In this document: positions 6,111 through 62,083 of the stretch, one piece after another | How positions within the stretch are numbered: the first letter of the stretch is position 1 | Layout of the letters: every line of letters starts with the position of its first letter | NCBI GenBank assembly: GCA_038087875.1 | Contig: CM075993.1 | Span: 8,496,001-8,560,000, forward strand | DNA from: Malacoraja senta | Lineage: Eukaryota | Length of the DNA stretch: 64,000 nucleotides | Direction of reading: 5' to 3' | Program-made: the position numbers and the translations under genes | Notes under the pieces: generated by a model | The model's database searches: none | Seen by the model: the letters and a program-made list of their open reading frames with translations, nothing else | Told to the model about the DNA's origin: nothing

Positions 6111-6114
6111 CCTG

Positions 6115-20393: not shown

Positions 20394-21955
20394 ATGACGT
20401 CACGCTCTCCAGACGGCTGTGCGGACGCATGATGACGCGCGGTGACCGTCGTGCGTCAGTCACTACCGGCCTGTCGTGTAAATGACGGCCAGGTGGGACA
20501 GGCCCTGTAGTGACCAGAACTGCACACAGTGCTCCCAGTGTGGCCTGACTGATATTTTATACAGTTTTGCCACAACTTACCAGCTCTTATATTCTGTCCT
20601 CTTTTTGATGAAGACAAGTGGCAAGTACCCCATAATTTGCCTTCTACACCTTCTCTATCAGTCCTATTCAGGGGTCCTTAAACTTGTCCTTCAAGGTTCC
20701 TGTATTCCTTGGATCCTGCCACTCATTGTGTTTGAATGAATCCATACCCTCATTCATGCTGCCAAAAAGCATCACTTTGCATTTATCCAGATCAAGTCCC
20801 ATCTGCAATTGCTCTGCCATCTTGCTGACTGATCAGTATCATCTTGTAGCCTCACTCAATGTGCTGCTCAGTGAACAGAGGTTACAGTACCAGGGTGTAA
20901 TGGTGCCATAGTTACAGCAAAGGACACGGCTGTTTATTCTTTGGGTCAGTGCCCGTTGCTGGTGGAATAACCCTGCCCTATTGTTCCTGCGGGGAGCCAG
21001 CCAGACTGACAGTGCAAGTCACTTACTTCTACAATCTATGCATGGGAAGTATGTTGTTTTTGAACAATATCTCGTGTGTAGTCATTGCAGCAATACAGAA
21101 AATCTAAAGTTTATTAGCAGTCCAGCTTGTGTTACTCTTGTTACAAACCAACAAACCAATAGCTGTTTCATTCAAACACATTCCGTCAGTGGAATAGAAG
21201 GCATCATTTATACAGGATCGTTTTTAAAGGCAGTCAATGCTTCAGCAGTCTGGGTTTTTGATCCAATTTATGCAATTGATGCAATTTCATATGTCTGTTA
21301 TTTTAACGATTATCCAATCAGGAGAATACTTAGAAAGATCTTCTTATCGAGTCCACATCACAAGATTAAAATTGGTTCAGCCAGAGCTGAACACTCTTCT
21401 CGGCATCTGCTTACAATGGCTTCTTGTGCGCAGTGATGGAAAGATTGGTGGAATGAAGGCTGCAACGTGAACGCTCTTTCCTTGACCCCATGTAGAAAAA
21501 TTATATTGATTACATCCGTTTTTCAAACTTCCTTCAGTTTTATCCCCTGCTATAAATTTGTATCCAAATTAATTCTTTACAAATGATCATCTAGTTCTTC
21601 ATCTGAGGTCGGATTAACTTGGAGGGCTATTCCTTATATATGTGATAATAAATTTGAACAATTTGCTTAACTCTTCTATTTCTCTTGTCTGAACAATTAT
21701 CTTTCTGTGTGCTGGGAATATGTTTAGAGGAATTTCAAATTTTTATGAAACGAGAGTTTGTAGGTTTAAGTGAATCATGTTTCAGATGTTCTGATCAGTA
21801 TTTCTGAGGCAGTTGACATCAAGGCTCTGAAAGGAAATACTGCAGGAAAGAGTACGAGCTGCTAACCTTTCCCACCATTGTTGCTCACCATTCATTTATT
21901 TCGTATATTTTGCCAAATCACTGGCTGATCCCAAAGAAACCACGACCATTATCTG

Positions 21956-22163
21956 AAGATAGACACAAAATGCTGGAATAACTCAGTGGGACGATCAGCA
22001 TCCCTGGATAGAAGGAATGGGGGACGTTTCGGGTCGAGACCTTTCTGACCAGTCTGAAGAAGGATCTTGACCCGAAACGTCACCCATTCCTTCTCTCTAG
22101 AGACGCTGCCCGTCCCGCTGAGTTACTCCAGCATTTTGTGTCTTTCTTTGCACCTGCAGTTCT
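21956..22163. mobile_element. PLE pLTR fold-back insertion with 11-bp TSD accattatctg
   Basis: TSD copies at 21945-21955 and 22164-22174; inverted arms. Confidence 0.88.
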
Positions 22164-22282
22164 ACCATTATCTGTATGAATTTCTAATTAAAGCACTGGA
22201 AAAGACCTGAGGTACCAAAATTTCAATGTACCTTCTATACAGGTATAGTACACATTATTATCTAAATTACTCTCTAAATGGC

Positions 22283-23003
22283 AGATTACTATCTAAATGG
22301 CGTCAAGTTGGGGAAAATGGGAAGTGCAACGGAATCTGGGAGTCCTTGTACATCATTCCATGAAAGTAAGCATGCAGGTACAGCAGGCAGTGAAGAAAGC
22401 GAATGGCATGTTGGCCTTTATAACAAGAATCGAATATAGGAGCAAAGAGGTCCTTCTACAGTTGTACAGGGCCCTAGTGAGGCCACACCTGGAGTATTGT
22501 GTGCAGTTTTGTGTCCCCTAATGTGAGGACGGACATTCTTGCTATTGAGGGAGTGCAGAGAGAATATGCTGAGAGAATGGAGCAGCTGGCTTGTACACTC
22601 TGGAGTTTAGAAGGATGAGAGGGAATCTCATTGAAACATATAAGATTGTTAAGGGTTTGGACACGCTAGAGGCAGGAAACATGTTCCCGATGTTGGGGGA
22701 GTCCAGAACCAGGGGCCACAGTTTAAGAGTAAGGAGTAAGCCATTTAGAACAGAGACGAGGAAACACTTTTTCTCACAGAGAGTGGTGAGTCTGTGGAAT
22801 TCTCTGCCTCAGAGGGGGTGGAGGCAGGTCCTCTGGATGCTTTCAAGAGAGAGCTAGATAGGGCTCTTAAAAATAGCGGAGTCAGGGGATATGGGGAGAA
22901 GGCAGGAACGTGGTACTGATTGGGGATGATCAGCCATGATCACATTGAATGGCGGTGCTGGCTCGAAGGGACGAATGGCCTACTCCTGCACCTATTGTCT
23001 ATT
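22283..23003 (+). mobile_element. CR1 LINE 3' fragment
   Basis: VKKANGMLAFI, LYRALVRPHLEYCVQF, RTRGHSLR. 3' end cctactcctgcacctattgtctatt. Confidence 0.9.
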
Positions 23004-23330
23004 ATCTGTCCCTCTGTAAGCCTTAAGGTGGTATGTTTACTGAATTTTATCTGGTGAGTTTTATGTGGAGATCACTAAATTGTCAAAGTGCTGCTGGAGT
23101 TTATCTAACTGAAACCAGACAACTTCCCCATGTTCCTTTTTAAAATTTTCGGATCTAGGAGTAATTGCTGGGGCTAGGATTTATTGCCAACTCTGAATTG
23201 CTTTTAAACTTGGGTGGCTTGCCATTCTAGAGGAATATAAAGGACAGCCACATGGGTGGTTTAGAGTTGTATATAGATCAGATCGGGAAAGGGTGCTAGA
23301 TATTCATGCTAAAAGACATCAGTAATGGAA

Positions 23331-24733
23331 TAGACAAAAATGCTGGAGAAACTCAGCGGGTGAGGCAGCATCTATGGAGTGAAAGAATTAGGCAACGTTT
23401 CGGGTCGAGACCCTTCTTCAGACTGATGTGAGGGTGAGGGGGTGGGGGGGGCGGGAAGAAGAAAGGAAAAGGCGGAGACAGTGGGCTGAGGGAGAGCTGA
23501 GAAGGGGAGGAGAAAGCAGGGACTACCTGAAATTAGAGAAGTCAATGTTCATACCATTGGGGTGTAAACTGCTCAAGCGAAATATGAGGTGCTGCTCCTC
23601 CAATTTACGGTGGTCCTCACTCTAGCCATGGAGGAGGCCCAAGACAGAAAGGCCGGATTCGGAATGGGAGGGGGAGTTGAAGTGCTGAGCCACCGGGAGA
23701 TCAGGTTGGTTAATGCGAACCGAGCGGAGGTGTTGGGCGAAGCGATCGCCAAGCCTAAGCTTGGTCTCACCGATGTAAAGCACCTGACACCAAGAGCAGC
23801 GGATGCAATAGATGAGGTTGGAGGAGGTGCAGGTGAACCTCTGCCGCACCTGGAAAGACTGCTTGGGTCCTTTAATGGAGTCAAGGGGGAGATAAAGCGA
23901 CAAGTGTAGCATTTCCTGCGGTTGCAAGGGAAAATGCCAGGAGAGGGGGTGGTTTGGGTGGGAAGGGAAGAATTGACCAGGGAGTTACGGAGGGAGCAGT
24001 CTCTGCGGAAAGCAGACAGTGGAGGAGATGGGAAGATGTGGCCAGTGGTGGGATCCCGTTGGAGGTGGCGAAAATGTCGGGAGGATTATTTGTTGTATGT
24101 GACAGCTGGTGGGGTGGAAGGTGAGGACAAGGGGGACTCTGCCCTTGGTACGAGTGGGGGGATGGGGCGTGAGAGCAGAGTTACGGGCTATAGAAGAGAC
24201 CCTGGTGAGAGCCTCATCTATAGTAGAAGAGGGGAACCCCCGTTCCCTGAAGAATGAGGACATCTCCGATGCCCTAGTGTGGAACACCTCATCCTGGGTG
24301 CAGATGCGGCGTAAAAAGAGGAATTGGGAGTAGGGGATGGAGTCCTTACAGGAAGCAGGGTGGGAAGAAGTGTAGTCTAGATAGCCATGGGAGACAGTGA
24401 GTTTTTAGTGGATGTCGGTCAGTAGTCTGTCACCTGCGATGGAGATAGTGAGGTCTAGAAACGGGAGGGAAATGTCGGAAATTATCCAGGTGTATTTGAG
24501 TGCCGGATGGAAGTTAGTGGTGAAATGGATGAAGTCAGTGAGTTGTGTGTGGGTGCAGGAGGTAGCACCAATGCAGTCATCGATGTAGCGGAGATAGAGT
24601 TTGGGAAATTGGCCCTGGTACTCCACGAACAAAGATTGTTCGACGTACCCTACAAAGAGGCAGGCATAACTAGGGCCCATGTGCGTGCCCATAGCTACAC
24701 CTTGTATTTGGAGGAAATGGGAGAAGTCAAACG
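23331..24733 (-). mobile_element. 5'-truncated Penelope-like retroelement: RT, GIY-YIG endonuclease, 3' pLTR
   Basis: Minus-strand ORFs give RT motifs GVAMGTHMGPSYACLFVG, YLRYIDD and LPFLDL, then RVPLVLTFHP and the GIY-YIG region FTCTSSNLIYCIRC..C..LYIGET..RL.DRF.QH. Frameshifts are present. Confidence 0.9.
23394..23421 (-). ncRNA. Minimal hammerhead ribozyme motif in the PLE 3' end, on the element's sense strand
   Basis: Reverse complement is CTGAAGA-A-GGGT-CTCG-ACCC-GAAA-CG-TT: CUGANGA and GAAA core boxes, stem II, palindromic ACGT in place of helix III, and a UH site. Confidence 0.7.
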
Positions 24734-24736
24734 GTA

Positions 24737-25040
24737 TAGTTTAGTTTAGAGATACAGCACGGAAACAGGCCCTTTCGCCCACCGTCCACGCCGACCAGCG
24801 ATCCCCGCACATTAACACTATCCTACACAAACTAGGGACAATTTACAATTTTACCAAGCCAATTAACCTACAAACCTGTACGTCTTTGGAATGCAGGAGG
24901 AAACCGGAGATCCCAGGGAAAACCCACTCAGGTCACGGGGAGAACATACAAACTCTGTACAGATAGCGCTGGTAGTCAGGATCGTACCCGAGTCTCTGGC
25001 ACTGTAAGGCAGCAACTCTACCGCTGCACCACCGTGCCAC
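24737..25040 (-). mobile_element. HE1/V-SINE, near full length
   Basis: (tagtt)n tail, V-domain, and tRNA-like head ...ggcagcaactctaccgctgcaccaccgtgcc. Confidence 0.88.
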
Positions 25041-25226
25041 TCTCTATTGTACTACAATCCAATAGTTTTGTAAAAGAAAATTAGTAAACACAAGATTTTA
25101 TACTTCCAGATTATTAACTGAATTTAAATTCCAAAGCTACCGTATGGGATTTGGAAAAAAAGACACAAAGTGATGGAGTAACTCAGCAGGTCAGACAACA
25201 TCTGTGGAGAGCATGAATAGGTGGCA

Positions 25227-25420
25227 GGCAGACACAAAATGCTGGAGTAACTCAGCGGATGAGGCAGCATCTATGGAGAGAAGGAATGGGTGACGTTTTG
25301 GATCGAGACCCGAAACGTCACCCATTCCTTCTCTCAATAGATGCTGCCTCACCCCTTGAGTTACTCCAGCATTTTGTGTCCACCTTCGATTCTATCCGGC
25401 ATCTGCAGTTTTTTCTCACA
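25227..25420. mobile_element. PLE pLTR fold-back insertion with 15-bp TSD catgaataggtggca
   Basis: TSD copies at 25212-25226 and 25421-25435. Inserted into an older pLTR copy beginning about 25160. Confidence 0.88.
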
Positions 25421-26214
25421 CATGAATAGGTGGCATTCTGGTTAGGAGCTCTGTTTTCCAATTTGTTGGTTCAGGTCTCTGGATTCTAGCCCAATACTTA
25501 ATCACTGCTCCACCACCATTACTGGATCAGTGTGAACTCCCTATTAGCAAACATTTCACCTGTGGAGACATCTATCTATCTGGCTCTTGTCATGATGAAG
25601 GCAATGAGGCAATTCCAGGAGAGATCAGGAAGAAACATCTGCTGGGCCAGATGTGGCTCGGTCGGCCATATGTTGCTCTCTCCCCACTGCCCTGCAAATT
25701 ATTCTCTCCCGCATTCACCCAGATCCCATTTGAAAGGGCTAATTGATTTTGTTTGTACCATCCTTACAGGCACTGACTGCAGATTATATAGCTGATTTCC
25801 TTTTTAAGTACATATTTTTCTCCCCAAGTTCTCATTGTATCTTTTGCCCAGCATTTTACATCTGTGAACTTTCAGTGCAGTCTGTTTGCTGAGGATTTGC
25901 AGCGTTTTACTGTTTAATGTCAGTCATTTATAACAGTGTGGTTACCAAGCACAGTTGACTGCAATTATTCAGTCAAGACCTCTCTACCCGACCACAATTG
26001 TATTCTGTATGTGCAATTTTTTTGTTTGTATGGTAGTTGCCCCAGAGTTGTAAGGTGGTGCTGCCTTCACTAAACCTAGTATTAAGTAGGCCCACATAAT
26101 TCTTGCCCTTCCCCATGTTACAACAGTAACTAGATTTCCACAGTGCTTTATTGACTCTGACATGCATTGGGATATCCACAAAAGCATGTAGTTAATGCAA
26201 ATCCCCCCAACCCC

Positions 26215-26216
<2 letters not shown>

Positions 26217-26245
<29 letters not shown>
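26217..26245. repeat. (CA)n microsatellite
   Basis: Direct reading of the sequence. Confidence 0.95.
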
Positions 26246-26751
26246 CAGTCTGTTTGACAGCTGCTGGATGTAGCCCTTTGTGATATTAACCTTCAAGTGA
26301 ACTGTCTGATTCACTACTGTTTGCTAAGTCTCTGGATTGCAAACATATTTAACTTGAGCAATATCATCCACCTGGAATTTGCACTGAAGTCAAGCTGTAG
26401 CTCTGCGGGGCACGGCGGTGGGGTGAGCAGATTGTGTGTCACAAAGCAGGTCCACAGTGGAGCCCGTCTTTGATGCCAGCTCCGTGGAGTGGAAGAGTGC
26501 CGTTGGTACGGGTCTCCGTGTGACTGCCTGCCCCGTCAGCTGCTTTGTGCTGGCAGTGATGCGAGGCCAGGGCTCTGATCGAGCTGTAAATTTCCCTGAT
26601 GCAGTCAGCTGCAAGTTGAAGGCCTGCCAAGGGGCCGTTTCACTTGTCTGTTAGAAACCTTGTACGGCAGCAGCCCGGGCAGGCTGCTCTTGTGCTGTGC
26701 TAAGCTGCTGCTGCTGAGGGTGTTGTTGCAAGGGCTTGCCACCTCTGCAAG

Positions 26752-27193
26752 AGGAATGAGTTCATTCCTAGCATGCGTGGTAATGAAACATTTATGAGGA
26801 AGCAGGGCAATTGAGCTGGGGCCACGCAGTGCAAACACAGCCTGCCAGAGCAGAGTTTTGTTAGAGCTGAGCAGATTGTGGCTGGCTTCCCATCGCTGCA
26901 CAGACATGGCTTTGTGTCGAAGCAGCCTGAAGGCTGACTGCACCCTCACATTCCACCCTTTATTCTTCTCCTTCGTTCAGACATGAATCCGATTACTGGA
27001 GTGGCCGGTGTCGGGTCGTTTCTGCCGCAGAAACTCCCTGCCTTCCGTGGGAGAGTGGAACAAAGGAAGGTGTTAGTCCGGAATTTTGGGAATGTCATTC
27101 CGGTTGATTTATCTGCTTGCTGTTCTCACTCGTTATTTACATTCCTTCCCTGAACTGCACTCCACTTTATGATTGATCGCCCGGATGCATTCC
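26752..27193. promoter_or_regulatory. Candidate enhancer with clustered MCAT/TEAD motifs
   Basis: Seven CATTCC/GGAATG hexamers in about 440 bp of apparently non-repetitive DNA. Confidence 0.4.
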
Positions 27194-29984
27194 TCCCTTC
27201 CCCTCCCGTCTTTTATCTCTCTGCTGGGACCCCCCGAGGTGTTTCTGCCCCTTGACCAAGATGCCAGTGAACAGCTAGATATTTAACAGCTCAGACCTTG
27301 GCCTGCTTGACTGGTTGAATCTCTCTTCCCTCATGCTTCACAAGAGAAACTACAGCAGGGTTTACCGCTAATGTTCTTGAGACCCACCTTGGCTAATGCA
27401 GGCCTGTCGTAGCTTCCTAGTGCAAGTCAAAAACACTGCAAATGCTGTATATCTGAAACCAAAAAGGGGAATGCTGGAAGCACGCAGCGGGTCAGGCAGC
27501 ATCTGCGGAAAGGGAAACGGTTAATGCTTTTGGTCAAAGACTTCTTTTCAGGACTGGGAAAAGGAGAAAACAAATAAAGTGATGACTTCAACTGGCACAT
27601 CTAGTCTAGGGATTAAAGCTTGATCCTTCCTGGCTGTTACAACTTAGTAAACTTACTGTGCCAACAGTGTTCAATAGATTTTTAATTTGTTTTGGTCACT
27701 CTTTTCTAGATCTTTAACTTTATGGGCTGTAGATCTTGAAAGTAAAACCTTTGTACTGTAAAGAGTGCTCGGCATAGCCTATTAAGTGGTTGTAATAGGT
27801 TTATCCCTGTTCTCCAGAGATACTGCCTGACCAGCTGTTACTCCAGCATCATGTTTCTTTTGTAAACCTGCATCGGCACATCCTTGTATCCATAAGATAT
27901 TCAAACCTGAATCTTGACAATTGTTGAACATGTTGAGTACTGTTCTCTTCTACCGTAAACTGTCACAGAGATACGCTGACATGGATTTAGTCTGTAGTAA
28001 TACAAGAAGTAGAAGCAGGAGTGATAGGCTCAATCAGCACAGAAATAGGCCCTTCAGCCCAACCTATCCAAGATGCCTCATCTACGCTCGTCCGATTTGG
28101 CCCATGTTCCTCTGCACCTTTCCTATCCATATACCTGTCCAAATGTCTTTTAAATATAGGCCTCCCCTGCCATTTAGTTAGATCAGGGCTAGTATTTTAC
28201 CTCTGGGCTATCTACCTGTATTAACCTCATCCATTCAACTTTCAGGGTGTGCAGGCAGTGTCTGAACTTGGCTTGAGTTTAATTATTGTGGTAGGACATG
28301 TAAAATATTGTAGATCTTGCACATTTCTGAGCCTGGTTGGTGAGGTAGTGTGGCAGGTTTTGAGTGGTGCCTGCAGGACAGAGGACCACACACCACATGC
28401 CAAATGATTGATGAGCCACTGCTTAAAACTGTGAGTCCTTGTGCCGTTTGAAAGCCTCATGTGTTGTGAAATCGATCTGAGCACCTTTTAAAGTGGATCT
28501 GCTGCATAGTATATTGAGGCTTTGTTAACCAGATCAAACAAGCCCTGAATCTAAAACTGTACCCTCTCCATCACTGGGTGTGTCTAAGTGAATTGTTAGT
28601 GGTCAAACTGCAGTCTGTGCCTTTGAAAGCTTTCAAACATTATACACCTGTGCAAGATTTTGCTGCTATTTATAATGATATTGTTGACTTTCATTTCCTG
28701 TATATTTTGCCTGTACTTTCTTTGATTTCACCCGTCCTCATCTTCCAGCTCACAGCATAGTTTGGAAAATCTATGCTTCAATTTGCTGTATGTTAAATGA
28801 GATGATTCCATCCTAGCCATTGTGGCTTTATGAGAGAATAATGTGCATGAAACTCTCGTCCAGGAAGGGAATGTTGACCAGCGTTCCTCTCTCTCCCACC
28901 CCACCTTCCCTTACGCTGCTATTGTGTACATATGCATGTGGGATGTAGGGCGAGGACAGGTTTGCGCTTGTACGAACAGTCGTGTAACTGGCTGGTGCTT
29001 GCTCACGCATGAAGAGGAGCTACTGCTGAAGTACCAGAGGGTGAGGGCCTTTGGAAGGTGTCCACACTTTTGGAAAATCTGGATGGAGTTGGCCCGTGCT
29101 GAGGAGAGCTGCTGGTAGAAAAATAAAAGGCAGAAATATTATTGTTTTTTCAATGGAACTGAATCTATTGCAAAACCATTAAAAGGGTAATTTGAAGCAG
29201 CATATTTCAAAATGTCAACAGTTTTATCGACAGAAGAAAAAATTGGCTGGGAATCCCTTGGATCGCACTGATGCTGAAAATGACACCATTTGCTCAAGTC
29301 AATTTTGCTCACAGGAGTTTCACCAGAATACTAAATGTGTGTGTGGAATGAGCACCTGGTTTGTTGCTGAGACCATGGCATCTTGCACTGTGTCCCCAGT
29401 CTCTGTTTCTACACTTTCTGCAGCGTTGATGGAGTTTTGGGAAAACCCATTCTTGGAGTTTCATCCTGCGCGGGTGAAAGGGCAGGGGACGGCCAACTGC
29501 GGTTTTGTTCTTTACGAGGATGTTGCCAGGACTCGAGGGCCTGGGCTTTAGGGAGAGATTGAGCAGGCTAGGACTTTATTCCTTGGAGCACAGGAGGATG
29601 AGGTGTATAAGATTGTGTATAAGATCATAAGTTTAGTTTATTGTCACATGTACCAAGGTACAGCGTAAAGCTTTTTGTTGCGTGCTTACTAGTCAGCGGA
29701 AAGACTATACATTACAATTGAGCCGTCCACAGTGTACAGATACATGATAAGGGGAATTACATTTAGTGCAAGATAAAGTCCAGTAAAGTATGATTAAAGA
29801 TAGTCCGAAGGTCTCCAATGAGGTAGATGGTAGCTCAGGACCGCTCTCTAACTGTTGATAGGATGGTTCAATTGCCTGATAGCAGAGGGAAGAAACTGTC
29901 GTTGAATCTGGAGGTGTGCATTTTCACCACTTTGTACCTCTTGACGGTGGGAGAAGGGAGAAGAGGGAAATAACTGGGATGTGA

Positions 29985-30207
29985 GTACACAAAAATGCTG
30001 GAGAAACTCAGCGGGTGCAGCAGCATCTATGGAGCGAAGGAAATAGGCAATGTTTCGGGCCGAAACCCTTCTTCAGAGTCTGAAGAAGGGTTTCGACCCG
30101 AAACGTTGCCTATTTCCTTCGCTCCATAGATGCTGCTGCACCCGCTGAGTTTCTCCAGCATTTTTGTGTACCTTTGATTTTCCAGCATCTGCAGTTCCTT
30201 CTTTTAT
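29985..30207. mobile_element. PLE pLTR fold-back insertion with 93-bp arms and 10-bp TSD tgggatgtga
   Basis: Arms 29985-30077 and 30079-30171 (2 mismatches). TSD copies at 29975-29984 and 30208-30217. Confidence 0.92.
30080..30107 (+). ncRNA. Minimal hammerhead ribozyme motif with UUCG loop
   Basis: ctgaagaagggtttcgacccgaaacgtt. Confidence 0.65.
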
Positions 30208-31339
30208 TGGGATGTGACTTGTCCTCGATCATAAGAAGAATAGATAGGGTAAATGTCTTTTACCTAGAGTGGGGGAATCAACAACCAGAAGACTAGATTT
30301 AAGGTGAGGGGGGTGGAGATTAAATGGAGAATTTTAATTGGATTAAAAAGCTGAGGGGCAACTTTTTTACACAAAGGGTGGTAGGCATATGGAATGAGCT
30401 GCCAGAGGAGGTAGTTGAGGCAGGTATTATTATGTGTGGACAGGTTTATGGTTTGGATCGGTTTGGAGGTATCTGGGGCAATCTCGGGCAGGTGGGACTA
30501 TTGTAGAATGGGGCATGTTTGCTCGGCTGAAGGGCCTGTTTCCATGCTGTATGACTCTATGACGGCATGTTATTGAGACATAGTGCAGCCCTCTGCAAGT
30601 GGAATCAGAGAACGATACCTATCAAAGTTTCAGCAGTCCCTGTTTTCGCAAGAGGTACGTTGCATAAGGGTATGTTTATGGTTGGTTGAAGAAAAAAAAT
30701 TCACTTGGTGCTGGAAAACTGAAGATACTCAGCATGTTAAGCAGCATCCATAGAGAGAGAGCGTGTGTACGCCAAGAACTATTATAAATTAAATATTGTG
30801 TTGTATAATATGAATGGAAGTTTTTCTGAATATTATACTGCTGATGAATGGCAGAATTCTTCTGGATATTCTTACAAGCAAATTATTTTGGAAATTGGTA
30901 TGCACTGATTTGTTTCATAGATGCTGCACAAGTTCACTGTTATGTCACTGTTGTTACAAGAGGGTTCATGAAATTGTAAGCCGCGGTGCCCTGGGAGGTT
31001 GGTGTGTAAACCAGGCCGTGAGCAGGGAGGCAGGGACTTACAGTATCTGCAGGCAAGGAAAGGGAAGTAATCCGCTCTTTAAGTGCTGGTTCTGTTCAAA
31101 CACTGAACGGCTGGTAAACTACTCCAGTGTGACCCCTGGCAGCCAGCCAAGCCACTCTGTGTAAATGCTTGGGGGGAGGGGGGGGGGAAGAGGTTGGGTT
31201 TCAGGAAACCCTGATACTTCTCATTCCTAATGAAAAGTGAATTTGTTGCGCAGATTGCTAGCTAACATTCCTTTTCAATTAGACACACATTACCTCAGCA
31301 TGGATTGGATTACAGAGTGTGTGTGTGTGTATGCTCACA

Positions 31340-32263: not shown

Positions 32264-33839
32264 CAGCGCCCTCGATAATATTTGGGACAAAGACCCATAA
32301 TTTATTTATTTGCCTCTGTACTCCACAATTTGAGATTTGTAATAGAAACAAAATCACATGTGGTTAAAGTGCACATTGTCAGATTTTATTAAAGGCCATT
32401 TTTATACATTTTGGTTTCACCGTGTAGAAATTACAGCTGTGTTTATACATAGTCCCCCCATTTCAGGGCACCATAATGTTTGGGACACATGGCTTCACAG
32501 GTGTTTGTAAATGCTCAGGTGTGTTTAATTGCCTCCTTAATGCAGGTATAAGAGAGCTCTCAGCACCTTGTATTTCCTCCAGTCTTTCCATCACCTTTGA
32601 AAACTTTTATTGCTGTTTCTCAACATGAGGACCAAAGTTGTGCCAATGAAAGTCAACAAAGCCATTATGAGACTGAGAAACAAGAATAAAACTGTTAGAG
32701 ACATCTGCCAAACCTTAGGCTTACCAAAATCAACTGTTTGGAACATCATTAAGAAGAAAGAGAGCACGGGTGAGCTTACTAATCGCAAAGGGACTGGCAG
32801 GCCAAGGAAGACCTCCACAGCTGATGACAGAAGAATTCTCTCTATAAGAAAGAAAAACCCCCAAACACCTGTCCGACAAATCAGAAACACTCTTCAGGAG
32901 TTAGGTGTGGATTTATCAATGACCACTATCTGCAGAAGACTTCATGTTTCACAGTTCTGGAAAAAGGTCTTGTGGACAGATGAGATGCAGATTAACTTAT
33001 ATATCAGTGATGGCAAGAGCAAAGTATGGAGGAGAGAAGGAACTGCCCAAGATCCAAAGCATACCACCTCATCTGTGAAACACGGTGGTGGGAGTGTTAT
33101 GGCCTGGGCATGTATGGCTGCTGAAGGTTCTGGCTCACTTATCTTCATTGATGATACAATTGCTAATGATAGTAGTATAATGAATTCTGAAGTGTATAGA
33201 CACATCCTATCTGCTCAAGTTCAAACAAATGCCTCAAAACTCATTGGCCGATGGTTCATTCTACAGCAAGACAATGATCCCAAACCAACTGCTAAAGCAA
33301 CAAAGGAGTTTTTCAAAGCTAAAAATGGTCAATTCTTGAGTGGCCAAGTCAATCACCCGATCTGAACCTAATTGAGCATGCCTTTTATATGCTGAAGAGA
33401 AAACTGAAGAGGACTAGCCCCCAAAACAAGCATAAGCTAAAGATGGCTGCAATACAGGCCTGGCAGAGCGGTACCCGGATGTGGCGCCGACGGACGAGAA
33501 GCCGAAGCAAAGAAGTGGAAGCCAAATAACCAAATGGAAACGAGGCCGAAACGCCAAATAACCGAAAGCGTACGAAGCCTGCAACTGGTGATGTCCATGA
33601 ATCTCAGACTTCAAGCAGTCATTGCATGCAAAGGATATGCAATAAAATACTAAACATGACTACTTTCATTTACATGACATTGCAGTGTCCCAAACATTAT
33701 GGTGCCCTGAAATGGGGGGGGGGGGGGCTATGTATAAACACTGCTGTAATTTCTACATGGTGATTTAATTGAAAAAATCACATGTAGTTAAAGTGCACAT
33801 TGTCAGATTTTAATAATGGCCATTTTTATACATTTTGGT
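32264..33839 (+). mobile_element. Tc1 IR/DR-type DNA transposon with a decayed DD34E transposase
   Basis: TA|CAG left end. ~225-bp left TIR with outer and inner DRs (ataat.tttgggaca). Transposase motifs GRPRKT, VLWTDE, VKHGGGSVMAW, QQDNDPK and frameshifted WPSQSPDLNLIEH. Inner part of the right TIR at 33685-33763. Confidence 0.92.
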
Positions 33840-33844
33840 GCCAC

Positions 33845-42524: not shown

Positions 42525-43263
42525 TGCTTGAAACTTCTGGCATCTGCAACCCTAGTTTCTCCCCTTCCTGGTAATTTCACCTCTGACAGGGAACAAAACT
42601 GAATCTAGTACTCCAGACTTTGGCTTCAGAGGATTTTGTATTGCTGAAGCATAATTTAAACTTCATCCCACAGAAGTCTAGATATAAAGGGCAGGATACC
42701 ATTGGACTATTAACTATTTTTTGTACCTGCCCATGAATGCGCAACCAACTAGAACACTAACAACACTGACCTCAGCAACTATGAACTTCCGACTGAAGAA
42801 GGATCCTGACCCGAAAAATCACCTGTCCAGTTTTTTTCAAGGAAAGCTGCCTGATCTGCTGAGTTACTCCTGCACTTTGTCTTTTTTTTTGTAAACCAGT
42901 ACCTGTAGTTCCTTGTTTCTCCATTAACTTCTATGGACTGTCTTTGGGTGCATAAAGGACTTTCGGGTGGGGGGGGGGGGGGGGGTTCTGCACTAGAATT
43001 ACGGTTATTAATTGAATATTACAAAAATTATTATATATTGTCTGTATTTATAGGGCCTGTTAAGCTGCTGAAAATAAGAATTTTGTTCCTTTGTCGGTAC
43101 ATATAAACACTCTTGACTCTGTCTTGACACTTGACATTTTGATGATCTGCACATACAGCCCACCAATCTCACTGCGTTTAGGGCTGGCGTTTTGCTGAGC
43201 TATCCACTACTTTGAATTAAACAACACAAATCAGACTCCAAATTTCATGCCTGAAATAAGGCA

Positions 43264-43495
43264 AAATGTAGAAACAAAGAACTGCAGATGCTGGCTTATA
43301 CTAAAGGTAGACACAAAGTGCTGGAGTAACTCAGCCGGTCAGGCAACAACTCTGGAGAACATGGAGAGGTGACGTTTCAGATACGGACCTGAAGGAGGTC
43401 ACTTCTTCAGGTTCCGACCCAAAACGTCACCTATCCATGTTCTCCAGAGATGTTGCTTGACCCGCTGAGTTACTCCAGCACTTTCTGTCTATCCT
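43264..43495. mobile_element. PLE pLTR fold-back insertion with 12-bp TSD tgaaataaggca
   Basis: TSD copies at 43252-43263 and 43496-43507; inverted arms. Confidence 0.86.
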
Positions 43496-44419
43496 TGAAA
43501 TAAGGCATTTTAATTTGATAGTAGACAGTGAATAAATAGTTTTCCTAAACATTATGTCAGGGTGGGAAACCAGACTACTGCAATGAAGCGCAAGTGGAGA
43601 ATGTTAATATGCTTGATCTTTTAAGAAGCTTATTTCAATCTTCAATTCTTTTAGTTCTCTTTTAAGCTTGCAGTTACTTTCAGCCATCGTGGGGGTAGTG
43701 AACTTTGAAACTATTTTGACATTGAAGAGTTTAAGTTAGCATAAAAACATGACACCAGTGCACAATAGCAGAGAGTGACAGGACATGAGGCAGCTTCAAT
43801 GGTCCTTCGTTCCGATGCTGTGAACTCGCCAGCTTTATTGTGAGGCAGTGCCTTGCAGGTACAGCTGATGAGAGAGACAAGTGGGGAATAAGATGTTGAA
43901 CTAGGGAGAGGGGGACGGTGGGTAGAAGGGAGCAGGGAGGGGGATGGCCAGGAAATGGGGGACCTGGAGTAAAGAGGGATGGGTGATGAGCAGGTCTGGG
44001 GTGAGTGGGGGGCAAGTGGGTAGGTGACGGGGGCTGTGAGAGTGGAAAGAAAGGTGTGCATAGGGGTGGGTGGGGGGTGAGCAGGTGGGTAGATGAGAAG
44101 GGTGGGGGCGGTATTCTGAAATTGAGAAGATGTGGGGGTGTCTGTCCATTTCCCTCCACAGATGCTACCTGGTCCGCTGTTCCACTGGCAGTCTGTTTTT
44201 GATCAAAATTCTGGTATTGCTTTATTCTTGTCACGTGTGCTGCGATACAGTGAAAAGCTTTGTATTGCCTGCTCTCCTGGCAAATCACACTACACTAGTC
44301 CATCAGGTGGTGCACAAAATATAATAGTGTGTCAACTACAGACAACAAGTGCACGGTCTGCAACGAGGTAAATTGCAGGATCGGGATATTATCTCGCCAT
44401 AATATGTGAGATTTCCATT

Positions 44420-45112: not shown

Positions 45113-45139
45113 TTCAAGAGTCTAATAAAAAAAACAGTG

Positions 45140-45380: not shown

Positions 45381-45782
45381 ATCCCTTGTGTCACAAGTTG
45401 ACCAGCACAATTGGTGAATGGGTAGAAGTATCAGTTTATCGATGAGAAAATGGTTAAAATACAAAAAGTATGTGTTAATCTATTCCTCAGTGTTACTCCT
45501 TGGCAAGTGCTTCATCAATTATTTTCTCAGTGGGTCATGGCTGACGTCTGTAAGTTACATTGGGAATAGCAACTGCTTATCATTTCTGTCCCCATGTCCT
45601 TAATACTCAGGAATCTCTTTTGGACATGCAATATCTTCTTTGCTGTGTGCCTTGGATTTCATGGCTGGTGTCCTATTCTAGGTACTTGATTATCTATTAA
45701 ATTCGGGTTGTCAATGATAAACCTCGTGGAGTATTGCTTGTTCATGTCGGCGCAGTCGATGACTTTTGTTTGCGTTTTCCAG

Positions 45783-48237
45783 GTTTTGTGAATCGCCAAC
45801 AAGTGACCTTGAGATGAGAGGGAACAATCGCGGGCGGGGGAAGCGAGTACGGCCCAGCACAAGCGCTCCAGTGATTGAGGCTGTCGTGGTTCCAGACACC
45901 AAGGTTATTACCAAGACTCGGGCGTGTTCCAGCAGCAAGGGGCGTCGGGGCAGCCAGAACTCTTCAGACAGTCGCACCCCCACAAACCCAGTGGAAGACG
46001 TCAAGGCAAGTCCTTCAGCGGGCAACAAGCGGAAGAACAAGCATGCTCCCGATTTGGACTTAACCTCAAGTTCCGAGGACTCAAAGGGAGGGAAAAGGAT
46101 GCGTTCAAACTCGCGCGGGGCAGCAACGCCAACCCCCGTCATGGTGGTGAAGCCCGAGGCGTCCGTGCCTGAGCATAACTGTCCGTCTCCCATCCTCATT
46201 GACTGTCCCCACCCCAACTGCAACAAGAAATACAAACACATCAATGGCCTGCGCTACCACCAGGCTCACGCACATACAGACAGTGACGGGAAGATTGAGG
46301 GTGACATTGACAGCGAGGAGAAGAACTCCGATGGTGAGGACTGCACCCAGCATCCGTCACTGAGTCAGGATTCCAGCAGCTGCAATGGTTCCTCCAGCTC
46401 CCACACGTTCTGCCAGTCGAAGGGCTACATGTCCCCAGCACGATCTGTCACACCAAAGGGCAGGAGGGAAGGCAGCATGGAGGCCCACAGCCCTTCCTCT
46501 GCCATGAAGCTTGGGACTGGGAAGAACGCCAGTAAAAAGAAACCCACTTCAGAGGCCGATGCGGAGTCTGGTGGGTTGTATAATGTTGATTGTTCAGAGG
46601 AAGGGCTTCCGGTTGCCAGCCCGAGTGACGACACAGGAAATGATGGTGACGACTCCACTGAGAAGAAATCGGCCTTGGAAAAAGACAAAGCCAAGAAATC
46701 GAGTGGTTCAAAATCAGATAAGCTTCCACTCAAAACAAAGTCTGCCAGGCCGATTGTCCCCGCCATGACGCCAGCACAAATGTACAGTTTCTCCACTGCC
46801 GCTTTTACTGCCTCGGGCCCGGGCTCTGCCCCTGGTTTGGCTACCACCGTTGTTCAAGCAATGTCCAAGAGCCCTCCGCTCAAACCCATTCAGCCCAAGC
46901 CCACCATCATGGGGGAACCGTCGACGGTGAACCCAGCACTCACGCCCTTGAAGGAGAAGAAGAAAAAGGAGAAGAAGAAGAAGGATGCCAAAGAGGCTGC
47001 GAGCCCCAAACCTCTGGGCAAAGTGGGGGCAAAGCCGGAAGATGGCAAGAGCCCTTTCCGGGATCCCGCTGCGGACTCTGTGGCTAAAGCCGAGGGGCTC
47101 CTAAACGGGTCGTCCGAGTCGCACGAAAGTCGCCTGGCCAGTATCAAGGCCGAAGCGGACAAAATCTACAGCTTCACCGACAACGCACCCAGTCCGTCCA
47201 TCGGTACGGCCAGCAGGCTGGAAGGCACGGGCCTGGTCACGCCTATTACACCCTTGCACGTGGTGACACAGAATGGAGCCGACAGCTCGTCGGTGAAGAC
47301 CAACAGTCCAGCGTACTCGGACATCTCAGATGCAGGGGAGGACGGAGAGGGGAAGGGAGATGGCAGTAAAGTCAAAACCTCCTCCCCGGACCAGATGGCC
47401 AAGGAAAGTGCCAAGAAAGCTTTATTTTCCTCATCATCCTCCTCCTCCTCCTCTTCCTCGTCCTCACGAACTCAACCACCTATAAATAAAGAAACCCACT
47501 CCCCGTACTACCAAGGTTACGACACGTACTATTCTCCGAACTACGCCCACTCGAGTCCTGGAGGTGCCAGCGGAGGCTCGGCGGCGGTGGGCCACTCGGT
47601 CAAGATCAAGAAGGAGGTGGACGAGGAGGGTGTGGAGGTGAGGGTCAAAGTGGAAAGCGCAGACGACAAGAAGACAGAAATGAGCAGTGCGGGCCACCAT
47701 CCTTCAGTGATACAGCAGCGCTCCCAAATGTACATGCAGCCTCTGTATTACGGTCAGTATGCCTACGTGCCCCAGTATGGCTACAGTGATCAGGGCTATC
47801 ACAGTCACATGATGAGCACAAACCCAGGCTACAGGCAGCAGTACGAGAAAATGTGCGAGGAGCAGCACAAACAGAGGCACGAGCAGAACCGCGGGAAGCA
47901 CAGCAGCAACGATCACGACAAGAAACAAGAGCACGCCATCAAGGAGCGGGAGGAGTGGAAGCAGAAGGCTCCTGCCTCTGCCACCCTCTCTAAAGCACCG
48001 AGCTTGACAGACCTTGCAAAACCTGTGCCTAACAAGCCCAAGGACCCGGCGGACTCCATAAAGTATGGCATAATGGCAAAAGCAGATGATACCTCCAAGA
48101 TGCAGACACAGCAGGCAGAAGGATTAAAGATGAAATTAACTGAGGGGAGTCACCTTGGGAGGGAGTTGTGTGAAACAAAACAAGGTCTGGAGTCAAGCAA
48201 GCACTCTGGAATGGATCCAGGACTGTGGTACAGACAG
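45783..48237 (+). CDS. ZNF609: ZNF609 large coding exon, 2455 bp (FCESPTSDLEMR...GLWYRQ), containing the single C2H2 zinc finger
   Basis: Lies within ORF 45766-48303. Acceptor gcgttttccag, donor cag|gtaaga. Motifs CPHPNCNKKYKHINGLRYHQAHAH, RLASIKAEADKIYSFTDNAPSPSIG, NSPAYSDISDAGEDGEG and EGLKMKL. GSQNSS, EDVKASP, HAHTD and LWYRQ favour ZNF609 over ZNF608. Confidence 0.95.
46204..46275 (+). other. ZNF609: C2H2 zinc finger coding segment (C-x4-C-x12-H-x4-H)
   Basis: Translates to CPHPNCNKKYKHINGLRYHQAHAH. Confidence 0.93.
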
Positions 48238-50334
48238 GTAAGACCCAAAAATAATCCGTGGAGTCATTTCAGGTTTTCTGCTTTACCAGACGGCATCTTT
48301 TAACTAAGGACATTCATTCAGCTTTCCATTGTCCTGTCTGATTGTAGTGTAGTGTAGTGTAGTGGACAATCACTCAGGACATCACTCCATCATGAAGAGT
48401 GCTGGAAACAGTACAATATTAGCACAGACTAAACTGACACACATGTAAAAAAACAATCTGCCTCCGCACTATTTTTCACATTTCAAGATGGCCCAAAGTA
48501 CTTTGTAAGCAGAGAATAATTTTGTAAAATGCAGTCACTGCTAGGCAGACCTAACATTCAATTTGCACAGAGGAAGATTTTGGTTTTGCGGATGTAGACT
48601 GGGAATTCAATGTTGACCAAGACGTAGAGAACTTCCCTGCTTTTGGAAGGATGCATTTTTTTAATACACTCACCTGGGGCAGCTTACACTCTCGTTTGGA
48701 AAAACAGCATGTTTAACAATGTGGCATTCCTTTAATTGCGCACTACAGTGTTAAGCCCGAGGCCACAGCCAACAACTCAGGAAAAAGAGCTCTTCAATAA
48801 CATAACAATTCACTTGTTCCATTTAACTGTTAAGGATTGCAAAGGGGGAGAAGAGCTATCTACGTAAGTAGTTGTGATCCAATAGTTCTTTATCATAACG
48901 TTGAATAATCAGCCTCTAATCTGAAAACCTTTCCTCATAAACACTCATAGTTATTGGTCAGGATGCAGACATGCGTGTGAATTGTAAAAATCACTCTCAT
49001 TTTGTTTGGAAAAGTGAAGTTCTTACACATTTTTGGATGTTGAACACCATGGTTTGAAGGAAACTTTCTAAAATCAAAAATCCCATTAAAATAACCAATT
49101 TGTAAGCCTGGGCTGACATTGAGACTTGAGATCAAGTTTATGTGGAGTTATTGTCCTTTGTTGAAGAAGTTGATCGAGGAGCAAACAGCCAACCCTACTC
49201 TTCGAGTCAGAGTTGCACGGTTTTGAATGGCTCTCATTCCATCACTCCATCTGTGGAGTGCACTGGCATCATTGAAGCCACTTGATCAGAGGTTAGCAGT
49301 GAAAAATGCACTCTTTTTCACTGACATACATTTCCATTCAGTTAATGATATGCCATGACTGATTTTACAACACTGAGCTGCTTCCAAGCATTTTATATTT
49401 AATTAACTCTCTTAAGGCTTCAGCTTAATGTCTTTAAATTTTGAGAGAGCACACAACTTCTGCTTGCCTAACCTTTCAATGGAGAGAGTATATGCCACCA
49501 GATGTTGCACAGTCCCTAATGTCAACGTAACTATCCAGTTTTTTAGTTGTGATGTACTTTAGCAAAATCCTCCAAATCCTTTACACATACCGACTCTGGA
49601 GTTAAAAACCGTGTGCAATATTTTAACTAGTTATCTGGTGACATTATTCATTATTCATTGCGAGTAAAGTTTACCAGTTGGCCTCATTCCAATTCTAATA
49701 TTAAATTGTGACCAAAATGTGTTACAATTGGACAAGGAGTACACACATAATGTTAATAGCCTAGTATTTTCATATCTGACTGAGCGCCTCAAGGGGCTTG
49801 ACAAATCAGAAGAAAACCTTATTTTTTAAAGACATTGGCTCATTTCACTGATATTGCATGTGGAAGGATGCAGCCTCTTTATTGGAAGGAGAGGGGAAAA
49901 AATCAGTCAGTATTCACTTATCAGCCAGTGACTTCCGGCCCAAGTTAGTGAGTGTGGGGATCGGGTGAGACAGGGTTCATTGCTGCTCTGTGGCTCCGTT
50001 ATATCACCCATGAGTGCCAGGTCCTCACCATAACTGGCGCTCAGGTAAATAAAATGATGAGGTGAGATGACACTGGGTGATCTTCCCATCACATCAAGGT
50101 GTGAAGCATCGTTGGATGCAGGACAACGACAACATTGCAAAAGCAAAAATAAATGTTCACCTCAATCTTAGACGACCATGATATTTATTTCACCGTTACT
50201 TATATTACCTAATTTTAGATTTTTTTTTGCTTGTGATATGGATCCTGTAACTTGTTTGAATTTGTGTTTAAGTGTGATTTCTTTGCTCTTTATACTTTCA
50301 TGGTAAAATTTACTTATACAATATCTTTATTGTT

Positions 50335-58737: not shown

Positions 58738-59500
58738 GTAGAGACATACAGCCCAGAACCAGGCCATTCGGCCCACCACATCCATACTGATCGCATTGCC
58801 CTCAGCACTTATCCCTAGCTTTGTAGAATACGTAAGAATAGTCAATATCCTACGCCTTGCTATTCAACTGCCTGTCTAAAAGCCTTTTAAACATAGTGAT
58901 TGTATCCAACTCCACCAACTCTTCTGGTAGCCAAGTCCCAAAGTCATCAATTCTCTATATGTGTTTAAAAAATCTTGTCAGATCCCCTTTAAAACTCCTC
59001 CCTTTCACTTTAAACCTGTGCCCTCATAGGTAAATGATACTGTCTATTCTACCTATGCTGCTTATAAATATTCGATGCCTCTCTCAGGTCACTGCTTACC
59101 CTTCTTCACATCCAGCCTGTCCACTCTCTCCCCCATACTGTAGTTTCCAATCCAGGCAACATCATGGTGATCTCCTCCGCACTCTCTCCAGTGCAGTCAC
59201 ATCCATCTCTATTGTGGCAATCAGTACTGCACACAATTCTCCAAGTATGTTTAACTAGTGTGTTGTAAAGTTGTAACACAAGCTCTCAACATTTGTATCC
59301 CATGCCCCAACTTGTGAAGCAAGCATATCAGGTGCCTTTGTCACCACCCACTTTGCCTGTGTTGGCAATTTGAGGGAATTCCGAAGGATCTTCAAGGTCC
59401 CTCCTTTCATCAACAGATCTTAGTCCTCTCCCATTTACTGTGAAAAATATCCTATTCCTAATTGACTTACCCAAATGCATCTCCTCCCACTTGTCCATCC
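58738..59500 (-). mobile_element. Old degenerate CR1 LINE
   Basis: aggccattcggcccacc tail, plus ctccgcactctctccag and tactgcacacaattctcca. Confidence 0.7.
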
Positions 59501-60198
59501 AGATAAGTTGGAAACCAATGCTCAGAGGAAGGAATTCCAATGTTTCCTGCATTAAACCAGTAACTGCACTTCAAAGAATCAAAGTTAATTGACTACAACG
59601 CTCTTCGGATATACTGGTTTACCCAGCCTTTCTCCATACCATTTTGCCACTCGACAAGTCTGTCAGAGAAATTCTGGCATAAGAACTTCATGCCCACTGC
59701 TCACCACCCGCTAACCCCGCTTGTCACATGTCTCCTGCAGCCTTCCTTTGCCCATGGGGTACTGTGCAATGTGATTCAGGGCACTCACTTTGTAGAGGAT
59801 TACTGAGGTGAGCTTGATGTGGATGTACTGATGTAGCTCAGCAAAGTGAATAATTTCCTTTTCCAAACAGTCGAATCTTTATTAATTTTACAAGTTTCAT
59901 CTGACTAGGCTGAAGTAAATAAAACTGCCCAATTATAATGTTATCCTGAATAGATCAATGGACTTGGGTTAACACTTCAGCAGTTCTGTTTAAACTCTCC
60001 TATATAGTAATGGATTTTGTCACGTTGCATTTTCTTAGAGGATGTTTTTATAGATTCTCCTCATGCCAATATATACTTCAGAAATCCCAGGGTTTTTTAT
60101 TTCCTTCGCTTGGTATAATTTGGTTCTGGATAGTATGCTCATGTCTGTTTGCAGTTGTTGGTTTACTGTAGTGAGTGACCCGGGATTGTACTTTCCAG

Positions 60199-60580
60199 GA
60201 ATCTGAAAGCAGGTTGTGGTCTTACGTGTATCCTAACAAATACTCCGAGCAGCAAAAGGCAGAAGAGGAGCGGTGGAAAGAAGCTGAGCGAGATCGTAAA
60301 TTTAAAGACGAGGGCTCATCGCGAATAAGAAGCAAAGAGATAGCAGTTAAAGAGGAAAGCAAGGACAACATGTGCTTGGAGTCCCGCTCAACGTCACTGG
60401 AAGAATGTCGATCAGTTGGAAAAGATCCCAGATCAGGACTTCACATCCCTGTGTCCTCATCGATGGTCCAGCACCCATCTTACATGCCGTACGTTCATGG
60501 CTACCCTTACGGAAAGCCGTACGAAGCCCCTCATCCAGGATTCCGAGGGGTAACGCCAGTCATGATGCAGAATTATCCAG
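60199..60580 (+). CDS. ZNF609: ZNF609 coding exon, 382 bp (ESESRLWSYVYPNKY...VMMQNYP-G)
   Basis: Acceptor tactttccag, donor ccag|gtacgc. Phase 0 start matches the previous exon. Resembles the ZNF609 segment EAEPRMWTYVYP...VMMQNYPG as recalled. Confidence 0.93.
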
Positions 60581-61112
60581 GTACGCTCATGGGCTCATTT
60601 ATCACGTCGGGTATTGGGGAGAACCATCATCGCAACAAATCAATAAAATCGAGGATAAGAGATCGCTCGATCATCACTTATCCAAACAGTAGCGCAATGT
60701 TCAAGTCAATGGGTGATGAAAGCTATTTCATGAGTAAATGATTTAATGAGATTGAATGAGAAAACGATTTAGAAAATATGCCTCACCGTCAGGCCAAGTA
60801 TGTGCATTGTTTCTTTGTCCAGGCTGTTCCTCATCGCAGGATCAATGCAGGATACGCCACTGACATGACAAGACTTAAATGCAGCCAGTTGTGTTTCTAA
60901 AAGATGAGTAAGGAAACTCAGTCAAAATATTTCAATCAAACTCCCTTCCTTGAAGGGATAGTGCTATAGTTAGCGTGAGTAAATGGTACTGCTGGTCTGC
61001 TGTGAACAGTGAAACTGCCCAGGTTAATCATTGTGAACTATAAAGCTCTGCTCATTTACATTCAAAACTGTGCTTTGTTTACAATTGATTTGGGCCAACA
61101 TTTGTTCTTCAG

Positions 61113-61288
61113 GATCATACCTGTCATCGGGATTCTCTTTCTCACCTTATGCAAGTAAGGTTCCGGGACACGATGACAATGAACGAGCTCATGGGAGTCC
61201 TGGTGTGGGCAACAAGTCAAGCTCTGAATCCATGGCCCTAGATATCTTGCAGCAACATGCCAGTCAGTACAAGAGCAGATCACCCACG
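61113..61288 (+). CDS. ZNF609: ZNF609 coding exon, 176 bp (GSYLSSGFSFSPY...ALDILQQHASQYKSRSPT)
   Basis: Acceptor tttgttcttcag, donor acg|gtaagt. Phase 1 start matches the previous exon. Contains the conserved ALDILQQHAS.YKS.SPT motif. Confidence 0.93.
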
Positions 61289-61469
61289 GTAAGTGTGCAA
61301 GGTCTGTGGACAATATAATCCTTGTATCGCATCCGTCATTCAGTTCCATGCTCTACGCTGGATGAGGTGACTCCCTCCTAAGCTTTGACAGGAAATGGCG
61401 ACGTGCACTTCTGCAGAAGTTAGCAGGATTACTTACGTATAATTGGTGGCTCATCACAGAATCCTTTTC

Positions 61470-61708
61470 GAAGGTAGATACAAAATGCTGGAGTAACTCA
61501 GCTGGACAGGCAGAATCTCTGAAGAGAAGGAATGGGTGACATTTTGGGTCGAGACCCTTCCTCAGTCTGTCTTCAGTCATTATGTCTTCAGTGTAAAGAA
61601 GGGTCTCGACCCGAAAAGTCACTCATTCCTTCTCTCCAGAGATGCTGCCTGCCCCGCTGAGTTACTCCAACATTTTGTATCTAAACCAGCATCTGCAGTT
61701 CTCCCCTA
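61470..61708. mobile_element. PLE pLTR fold-back insertion with 15-bp TSD cacagaatccttttc
   Basis: TSD copies at 61455-61469 and 61709-61723; inverted arms. Confidence 0.88.
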
Positions 61709-62083
61709 CACAGAATCCTTTTCTGTTATCTCTGTTGCTTGAGTATAATCAATGACCTTCAGTCATGCGATCTGATCAACTCCACTGGTGTCGCTTCCGC
61801 TAACATTCATCAAGCTCCTTCATTGCTTTCATAGTGGCTGCTTGCGGCATTATGTTCCCTCTGCTCCTCTCAGCTCTTGAAAATGGTTTCTTTATTTAGT
61901 GCTGTCTAACTGCTGTTTGTCATCTCTTACCCTTGAACAGCTTTTTATCAATCTTAAATCCCACTCACACAGCTCCTCCATTTTTAAAACTGCTTCAAAA
62001 AAAGATTAGCGTCTTCTGATGCCTCCCACTTTACCATTCAGCAACCTTCATCCTCTCTAAACCAGCACAAAATTGATTTAGGC

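Follow-up and report, generated by a model that had tools for sequence, protein, structure and literature searches.

A stretch of 64,000 nucleotides from Malacoraja senta (NCBI GenBank assembly GCA_038087875.1, contig CM075993.1, positions 8,496,001 to 8,560,000 of the forward strand), here called the window and used for all coordinates, contains 39 profile-search matches, some of them overlapping, to one short repeat, which is predicted to be the 3' pseudo-long terminal repeat (pLTR) of a Penelope-like element (PLE). Nine times two copies of this repeat lie head to head and form a hairpin unit. Five of these units had been noted in a preliminary description as palindromic inserts between exact direct target site duplications (TSDs), and this stands: the inserts of 194-239 bp (208, 194, 223, 232 and 239 bp in units 1-5) are flush with duplications of 11, 15, 10, 12 and 15 bp, all of them exact and each occurring only twice in the window. 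With random placements in the same search windows as used for the units, an exact repeat of at least 10 bases was obtained in 0.5% of 3000 cases, a background that is itself partly contaminated since it includes chance draws on the five units. These units and their duplications are the following.

21945-21955: left target duplication of unit 1, 11 bp, exact repeat
21956-22046, minus strand: tail-less pLTR arm of unit 1
22050-22163, plus strand: pLTR arm of unit 1 with an internally deleted tail and a hammerhead motif at 22054-22081
22164-22174: right target duplication of unit 1, exact repeat
25212-25226: left target duplication of unit 2, 15 bp, exact repeat
25227-25420: unit 2, tail-less arm on the minus strand (25227-25314) and tailed arm on the plus strand (25303-25420), overlapping on hammerhead stem II
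25421-25435: right target duplication of unit 2, exact repeat
29975-29984: left target duplication of unit 3, 10 bp, exact repeat
29985-30207: unit 3, tail-less arm on the minus strand (29985-30077), 1-nt centre and tailed arm on the plus strand (30079-30207), arms 98% complementary
30208-30217: right target duplication of unit 3, exact repeat
43252-43263: left target duplication of unit 4, 12 bp, exact repeat
43264-43495: unit 4, of opposite polarity and an older subfamily, tailed arm on the minus strand (43264-43385), small inverted centre and tail-less arm on the plus strand (43402-43495)
43496-43507: right target duplication of unit 4, exact repeat
61455-61469: left target duplication of unit 5, 15 bp, exact repeat
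61470-61708: unit 5, tail-less arm on the minus strand (61470-61568) and tailed arm on the plus strand (61589-61708), separated by about 20 nt of filler in which junction sequence recurs as short repeats
61709-61723: right target duplication of unit 5, exact repeat

The arms of these units are 83-98% complementary over 79-106 nt, and unit 3 is predicted to fold at -181.9 kcal/mol (z = -28.5). In five of five units one arm carries a tail of about 30 nt and the other ends near GTGTCTA, unit 4 being reversed in polarity relative to the other four, with its tail on the left. The asymmetry reported previously holds throughout, but in unit 1 an internal deletion has shortened the tail, and the catctgcagtt quoted previously is missing there.

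Four further head-to-head pairs, at 9203-9401, 17980-18250, 19625-19862 and 20201-20393, bring the total to nine, and a near-non-overlapping pair lies at 6110-6253.

17980-18250: unit 6, tail-less arm on the minus strand and tailed arm on the plus strand, with an internal insertion; duplication not found
20201-20393: unit 7, both arms tail-less, the minus arm with a join of open reading frame end and hammerhead at 20290-20306; duplication not found
9203-9401: unit 8, old, arms 26% apart; duplication not found
19609-19879: unit 9, tailed arm on the minus strand and tail-less arm on the plus strand preceded by about 35 nt of untranslated region, with a degenerate 17-bp duplication (19609-19624 and 19863-19879)
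6110-6253: near-non-overlapping head-to-head pair, 3' half and tail on the minus strand and 5' half on the plus strand, the halves sharing 7 bases; duplication not found

The degenerate duplication of unit 9 scores 24, and a score of 22 was attained by less than 0.35% of 2000 random pairs. TSD length, which had been said to vary, does so (10, 11, 12, 15 and 15 bp exact; 17 bp degenerate in unit 9). The pair at 6110-6253 has the layout of an inversion by twin priming, the process, reportedly described for LINE-1 by Ostertag and Kazazian in 2001, by which both target strands prime cDNA and a 5' inversion inside the TSD results. Unit 7 is flanked on both sides by a GC-rich element (19886-20200 and 20394-20500) that has GGCCTGTCCCAC-type ends and begins directly after unit 9; unit 7 probably inserted into this element. 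Pattern scans of contigs from four collections, one viral, two metagenomic and one of prokaryotic genomes, found no copies of the repeat.

The source element

Three copies in the window extend from the pLTR into the 3' end of a retrotransposon, in which an open reading frame (ORF) for reverse transcriptase (RT) and endonuclease (EN) is followed by an untranslated region (UTR).

23327-24740, minus strand: 5'-truncated, broken Neptune-type PLE with the C-terminal part of RT, CX4CX2C linker, GIY-YIG/CCHH endonuclease, UTR and tail-less pLTR (23327-23424)
4855-5230, minus strand: 3' end of a second element with the last ORF codons, a different UTR and a pLTR with tail
11438-11963, minus strand: 3' end of a third element with the endonuclease C-terminus, a third UTR and a partial pLTR

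The hairpin arms match the pLTR end, about 100 nt long, of the first of these, whose region 23526-24731 aligns to P0017/P0014/P0019; its RT piece shares 70% identity with P0017, an RVT_1-bearing protein from a shark, and the best named protein matches of the element come from sharks and rays (top identity 81% over 57% of the query, from a skate). The GIY-YIG domain is found in the broken ORF with E = 0.002, which is below Pfam's cut-off, and the CCHH residues of the endonuclease, by the criterion given in the available text of PMC8557442, read as LIYCIRCSWCQVLYIGET ... QH ... QHFN. Between RT and EN the linker reads CNRRKCYTC and satisfies CX2-5CxxC, a motif that according to the same text marks Neptune or Nematis and is absent in Penelope/Poseidon (PMC8557442). 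A minimal hammerhead pattern matches 13 times in the window as against 0.41 expected, and 12 of the 13 matches fall within this repeat. The Penelope-like origin previously ascribed to the arms is supported by their match to the pLTR of an RT/GIY-YIG element and by the hammerhead pattern, and judged by sequence the arms are the predicted hammerhead-bearing 3' end of a Neptune-type PLE, the clade being read from a linker motif common to Neptune and Nematis. The pLTR begins with a predicted minimal hammerhead motif, but an Rfam search of the window returned no hammerhead family and only sub-threshold miRNA/lncRNA matches, the latter because of the hairpins, and in isolated folds of three hammerhead regions stability was no better than that of shuffles and the hammerhead fold was not the predicted minimum.

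In the second element pLTR and tail (4855-4984, minus strand) form an open reading frame, and most copies of the repeat carry CTGAAGAAG where the copy at 17346 (minus strand) retains CTGATGAAG, the start codon position in an anole element. A 72-nt inverted copy of the UTR of the second element (5006-5077 and 5935-6006, 99% complementary) lies 857 nt apart from it with other repeats between, and is perhaps part of a larger inverted insertion that was interrupted later.

Probable discrete insertion

The notion that the units are discrete insertions is in agreement with the exact duplications flush with the inserts and with the nesting of unit 2 in an older, co-linear pLTR copy of the same repeat, which becomes continuous when unit 2 and one of its duplications are excised.

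25150-25211, minus strand: 3' part of the older pLTR copy hosting unit 2, resuming at 25421-25458 and co-linear with other copies minus unit 2 and one duplication

This host copy, internal to the window, is the one place where an empty site is directly indicated. The region is present in public runs from seven organisms, and relatives were compared over 17700-30700 through contigs of four of 23 runs, one close and three about 4% diverged in unique sequence. The contigs of three relatives cease to align 14-27 nt past the right duplication of unit 2, leaving 43-60 letters unaligned, which speaks neither for nor against an empty site. Depth per bin is 15-112 in unique stretches and 1e4-1e7 in repeat-rich bins, and the repeats of this region are very abundant in each of them. 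No duplication was found for the ORF-bearing copy, and none above chance for the solo copies tried.

Arm ends and centre junctions

All nine pairs are joined 5' to 5'. A tailed and a tail-less arm are combined in eight of them, unit 7 has two tail-less arms and no pair has two tails, a distribution with a probability of about 0.02 for the eight mixed pairs if, by simple arithmetic, arms picked their ends independently at even odds. Both end classes are also seen among non-inverted copies, and since the tail-less end closes such copies too, including the ORF-bearing one, it acts like a priming site. Towards the centre, 15 of the 21 examined arms with an intact CTGA core end at about the AG/TCTGAAG boundary and six run into the pyrimidine-rich UTR, which is also borne by two more copies beyond these 21. 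The centre junctions cluster within about 30 nt and differ in all nine pairs: the arms of unit 2 overlap on hammerhead stem II, those of unit 3 make a perfect palindrome around a single central nucleotide, units 1, 5 and 6 contain fillers, unit 4 a small inner inversion and unit 9 about 35 nt of UTR, and unit 7 is centred on TCAG-A-CTGA. Both polarities and several subfamilies occur among the nine units.

Arm similarity and age

Divergence between arms was measured over a 75-column core alignment, in which the two arms of units 1-5 differ at 9, 7, 2, 9 and 8 sites respectively and the mean between units is 19.7%; unit 3 is the youngest. In the five units the arms are 9.3% apart as against 18.6% under random pairing (P = 0.001), and with seven units P = 5e-5. 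The previous statement that arms match each other better than they match other copies is hence correct overall, but mostly a subfamily effect, with P = 0.07 in the main subfamily. Reciprocal nearest neighbours are found in units 2, 3 and 4 only, both arms of units 1, 3 and 7 carry variants absent from every other aligned copy, and in units 1-7 both arms come from the same subfamily; units 8 and 9 are too old for arm pairing to be judged, and the arm tree is poorly resolved within the main subfamily. The arms of a unit have a common origin, but a hairpin copied whole, or arms homogenised afterwards, would give the same picture. Formation at insertion is argued for by the unique junctions, the mixed polarity and the several subfamilies, and not by arm similarity alone. 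Arm divergence exceeds that of the duplications, which could point to two different templates; this reading was dropped, since the excess is weak when units without an exact duplication are counted (P = 0.04 at all sites, 0.12 without CpG).

Formation of the hairpin units

That the units are independent insertions made by Penelope is, taken alone, a conclusion that we hold with high confidence. As to the way in which they were made, we lean with modest confidence towards a model in which both target nicks prime cDNAs that are joined head to head, each unit being one target-primed insertion. The steps proposed are intended to account for the arm identity, the duplications, the two end classes and the differing junctions described above. 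The GIY-YIG nuclease of the element would cut the target strands 10-15 nt apart and so give rise to the duplication; one nick would prime at an outer start site and yield the arm with the tail, and the second would prime at an inner site about 30 nt upstream and yield the tail-less arm, a single RNA presumably serving as template for both. Both cDNAs would end close to the hammerhead's 5' edge, and the joining of these same-sense strands at their 3' ends would be possible only at built-in palindromes or through short fillers. The PLE enzyme is not known to have RNase H. An anole PLE protein is described in the accessible part of PMC11167929 as cutting and extending both strands in vitro, with two RT start sites that bracket the tail. 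The two arm ends mirror these start sites, and viewed together with the unit anatomy double priming is the simplest account. The twin-priming layout of the pair at 6110-6253 also speaks for it, and since the tail-less end closes ordinary non-inverted copies, two priming events are favoured over one fold-back.

Fold-back is the alternative that fares best, though it is clearly less probable. A tail-primed cDNA would halt at the hammerhead 5' edge, snap back on the palindrome and copy itself to about 30 nt short of its start, whereupon the hairpin would be joined to the second nick; self-priming has been proposed for rotifer elements (PMC3846280, as far as its available text goes). Such a course would account for the pairing of tail with no tail in eight of nine units and for arms of the same subfamily, and the junctions of unit 2 exactly at stem II, of unit 3 at a palindrome with a 1-nt centre and of unit 7 on TCAG-A-CTGA are what it predicts. 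It gives however no reason why the second arm should end where ordinary non-inverted copies end, it does not simply make unit 7 with its two tail-less arms or the pair at 6110-6253, the fillers of units 1, 4, 5, 6 and 9 are not clean snap-backs, and one arm of unit 9 extends 35 nt further 5' than its partner. The stereotyped fold-back of the preliminary description is not shown, as the junctions differ within about 30 nt and the tail-less end is not confined to inverted copies.

It is improbable that a small number of hairpins, each formed a single time, now propagate whole as non-autonomous units, be it like short interspersed nuclear elements via Penelope protein or like miniature inverted-repeat transposable elements (MITEs). 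The variants that both arms of units 1, 3 and 7 share to the exclusion of all other window copies are those expected of a copied master, and all four runs compared contain the repeat in extreme abundance, but no two of the nine units have a junction or arm type in common, the termini are not inverted repeats since the tail is one-sided, and the duplications vary in length, unlike those of DDE transposases, which do not. A pattern indicating a single propagating MITE was looked for and is not seen, given that nine of nine junctions differ and TSD length varies. Least probable of all is an origin of the inverted pairs after insertion, whether through a neighbouring second insertion, through a local inverted duplication or through arms converting one another, for although unit 2 shows that the element can target copies of itself and three of the nine pairs are without a duplication, one duplication brackets both arms in six of nine, the arms of units 1-7 belong to the same subfamily and the tail asymmetry is regular.

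Several observations weigh against priming from both target nicks. Unit 7 is without a tail on either arm, and the palindromic junctions of units 2, 3 and 7 suit fold-back equally well. A recognisable duplication is present in only six of the nine pairs, units 6, 7 and 8 and the pair at 6110-6253 having been searched without success, and no empty orthologous site was seen among the 15 joints listed of 54,646 in the four runs, which are swamped by repeat contigs. In the main subfamily (four units) the arms are 9.9% apart within units vs 11.5% (P = 0.07), and the duplications differ at 0 of 63 sites vs 35 of 375 in the arms. The model is furthermore weighed on nine loci in one 64-kb window, with which a propagating hairpin subfamily is compatible, and PMC11167929 reports no strand difference in start site, and this in a Poseidon, not a Neptune, element.

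A possible role of splicing

The three copies that reach the end of the ORF each open there, with GTA (at 23526, 5172 and 11730), a UTR that cannot be aligned with the others (23424-23526, 4984-5172 and 11495-11730, all on the minus strand; about 100, 190 and 235 nt), and each UTR closes with a pyrimidine tract and YAG that directly precede the TCTGAAG of the hammerhead. This UTR is likely an intron and the arms likely stop at its splice acceptor; in Drosophila Penelope an intron ends at hammerhead helix I according to the accessible text of PMC4209133. An exact ORF-end/hammerhead join is present in the minus arm of unit 7 (20290-20306), and unit 6 has a sequence one mismatch away from it at 18080-18096 (plus strand); such joins, in one or two arms, are what cDNA of spliced RNA would show. 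The spliced join folds at -2.6 kcal/mol vs -0.2, 0 and -1.1 for the three unspliced boundaries. It may be asked whether splicing, by making a stronger palindrome (CTTCAG-T-CTGAAG) where the arms stop, causes cDNAs of spliced RNA to close as dead-end hairpins, so that long copies would derive only from unspliced RNA, an idea that we consider improbable. The GTA follows from the last codon and the stop, CTTCAG is expected from fold-back regardless, two of the unspliced acceptors agree with the exon end in 7-8 of 10 positions, the remaining seven junctions are without exon sequence, and the boundary at which the arms stop also fits an initiator consensus. If true, such a splicing trap would explain why Penelope elements appear to retain an intron, and the abundant hairpins would be a genome-wide record of a two-primer mechanism.

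Genomic context and significance

The units lie around and between large exons of a host gene (45763-48303 and 60175-60741, both on the plus strand), the C2H2-like motif of which is, we presume, reminiscent of ZNF608/ZNF609; a ZNF608 cluster ranked third (0.89) for these exons and is a lead only. The window also contains a Tc1/mariner-like transposon (32417-33763), which has inverted repeats and whose transposase is decayed, and at 7408-8901 84-nt inverted repeats (99%) enclose aspartyl-protease and RT-like fragments, the left repeat cutting a pLTR copy at 7409. The hairpins resemble MITEs or microRNA hairpins, and in a gene region they could yield long double-stranded RNA. Both ends, arms and junction of a unit fit in one sequencing read, and given such short units and the great abundance of the repeat in these fishes, thousands of loci could decide between double priming and fold-back and test for a spliced template.

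Comparison with known systems

A literature search, with subscription papers and repeat databases mostly outside it, found no treatment of this family for cartilaginous fishes and no account of twin priming in Penelope, and a link to the human Eulor/UCON hairpin repeats was looked for in the available literature and found no support. The late steps of PLE retrotransposition (second strand, inverted pLTR, tail) are called unresolved in the accessible text of PMC8557442 and PMC11167929.

Like MITEs the hairpins are short, palindromic, non-coding and flanked by TSDs, but they differ in their variable TSD, one-sided tail, unique centres and arms taken from a retroelement end; identity as MITEs was rejected, as the exact TSDs vary from 10 to 15 bp and terminal inverted repeats and interior are not uniform. 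In LINE-1 twin priming each of the two cDNAs reportedly represents its own part of the RNA, whereas the arms of the hairpin units cover the same stretch of about 95 nt. Non-LTR retrozymes, in the text available, consist of head-to-tail tandem monomers with a type I hammerhead (10.64898/2026.07.22.740005); this identity was likewise rejected, the units being head to head and the repeat forming no tandem array except for the nested unit 2.

The predicted motif resembles the minimal hammerheads of metazoan PLEs as given in the available part of PMC4209133 (CUGANGA, a bulged base, stem II and a GAAA-CG-UC core). Opposite-strand hammerhead pairs are described there for Schistosoma, but these lie 100-700 bp apart, whereas the pairs here, in which the motif is predicted only, are 0-35 nt apart. 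The anole Poseidon element PAc (PMC11167929) likewise has a hammerhead at the start of its pLTR and, downstream, two classes of 3' end separated by about 30 nt; it belongs to another clade, inverted products and double priming do not figure in the main text, and the targets of the hairpin units, at only 50-67% AT, count as a further difference as far as that source goes.

The closest likeness is to the complex insertions of endonuclease-bearing (EN+) PLEs. Inverted pLTRs with a 31-bp tail on one, TSDs of 8-10 bp and junction palindromes are described in the available text of PMC3846280, and inverted copies and tails are given as standard for PLEs in that of PMC8557442 and PMC8969392. Shared with these insertions (PMC3846280; PMC8557442, both in part) are head-to-head pLTRs, one of them shorter by an optional tail of 30-40 nt, and palindromic junctions, the TSDs being 8-10 bp there vs 10-15 bp here. 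The architecture of inverted pLTR, tail and variable TSD is thus mostly ordinary and itself not new, and the hairpins are its minimal form. They differ from the EN+ insertions as described in that there is no ORF between the stubs, both of which halt near the hammerhead, and in that nine pairs occur within a single 64-kb stretch of a gene region in a vertebrate.

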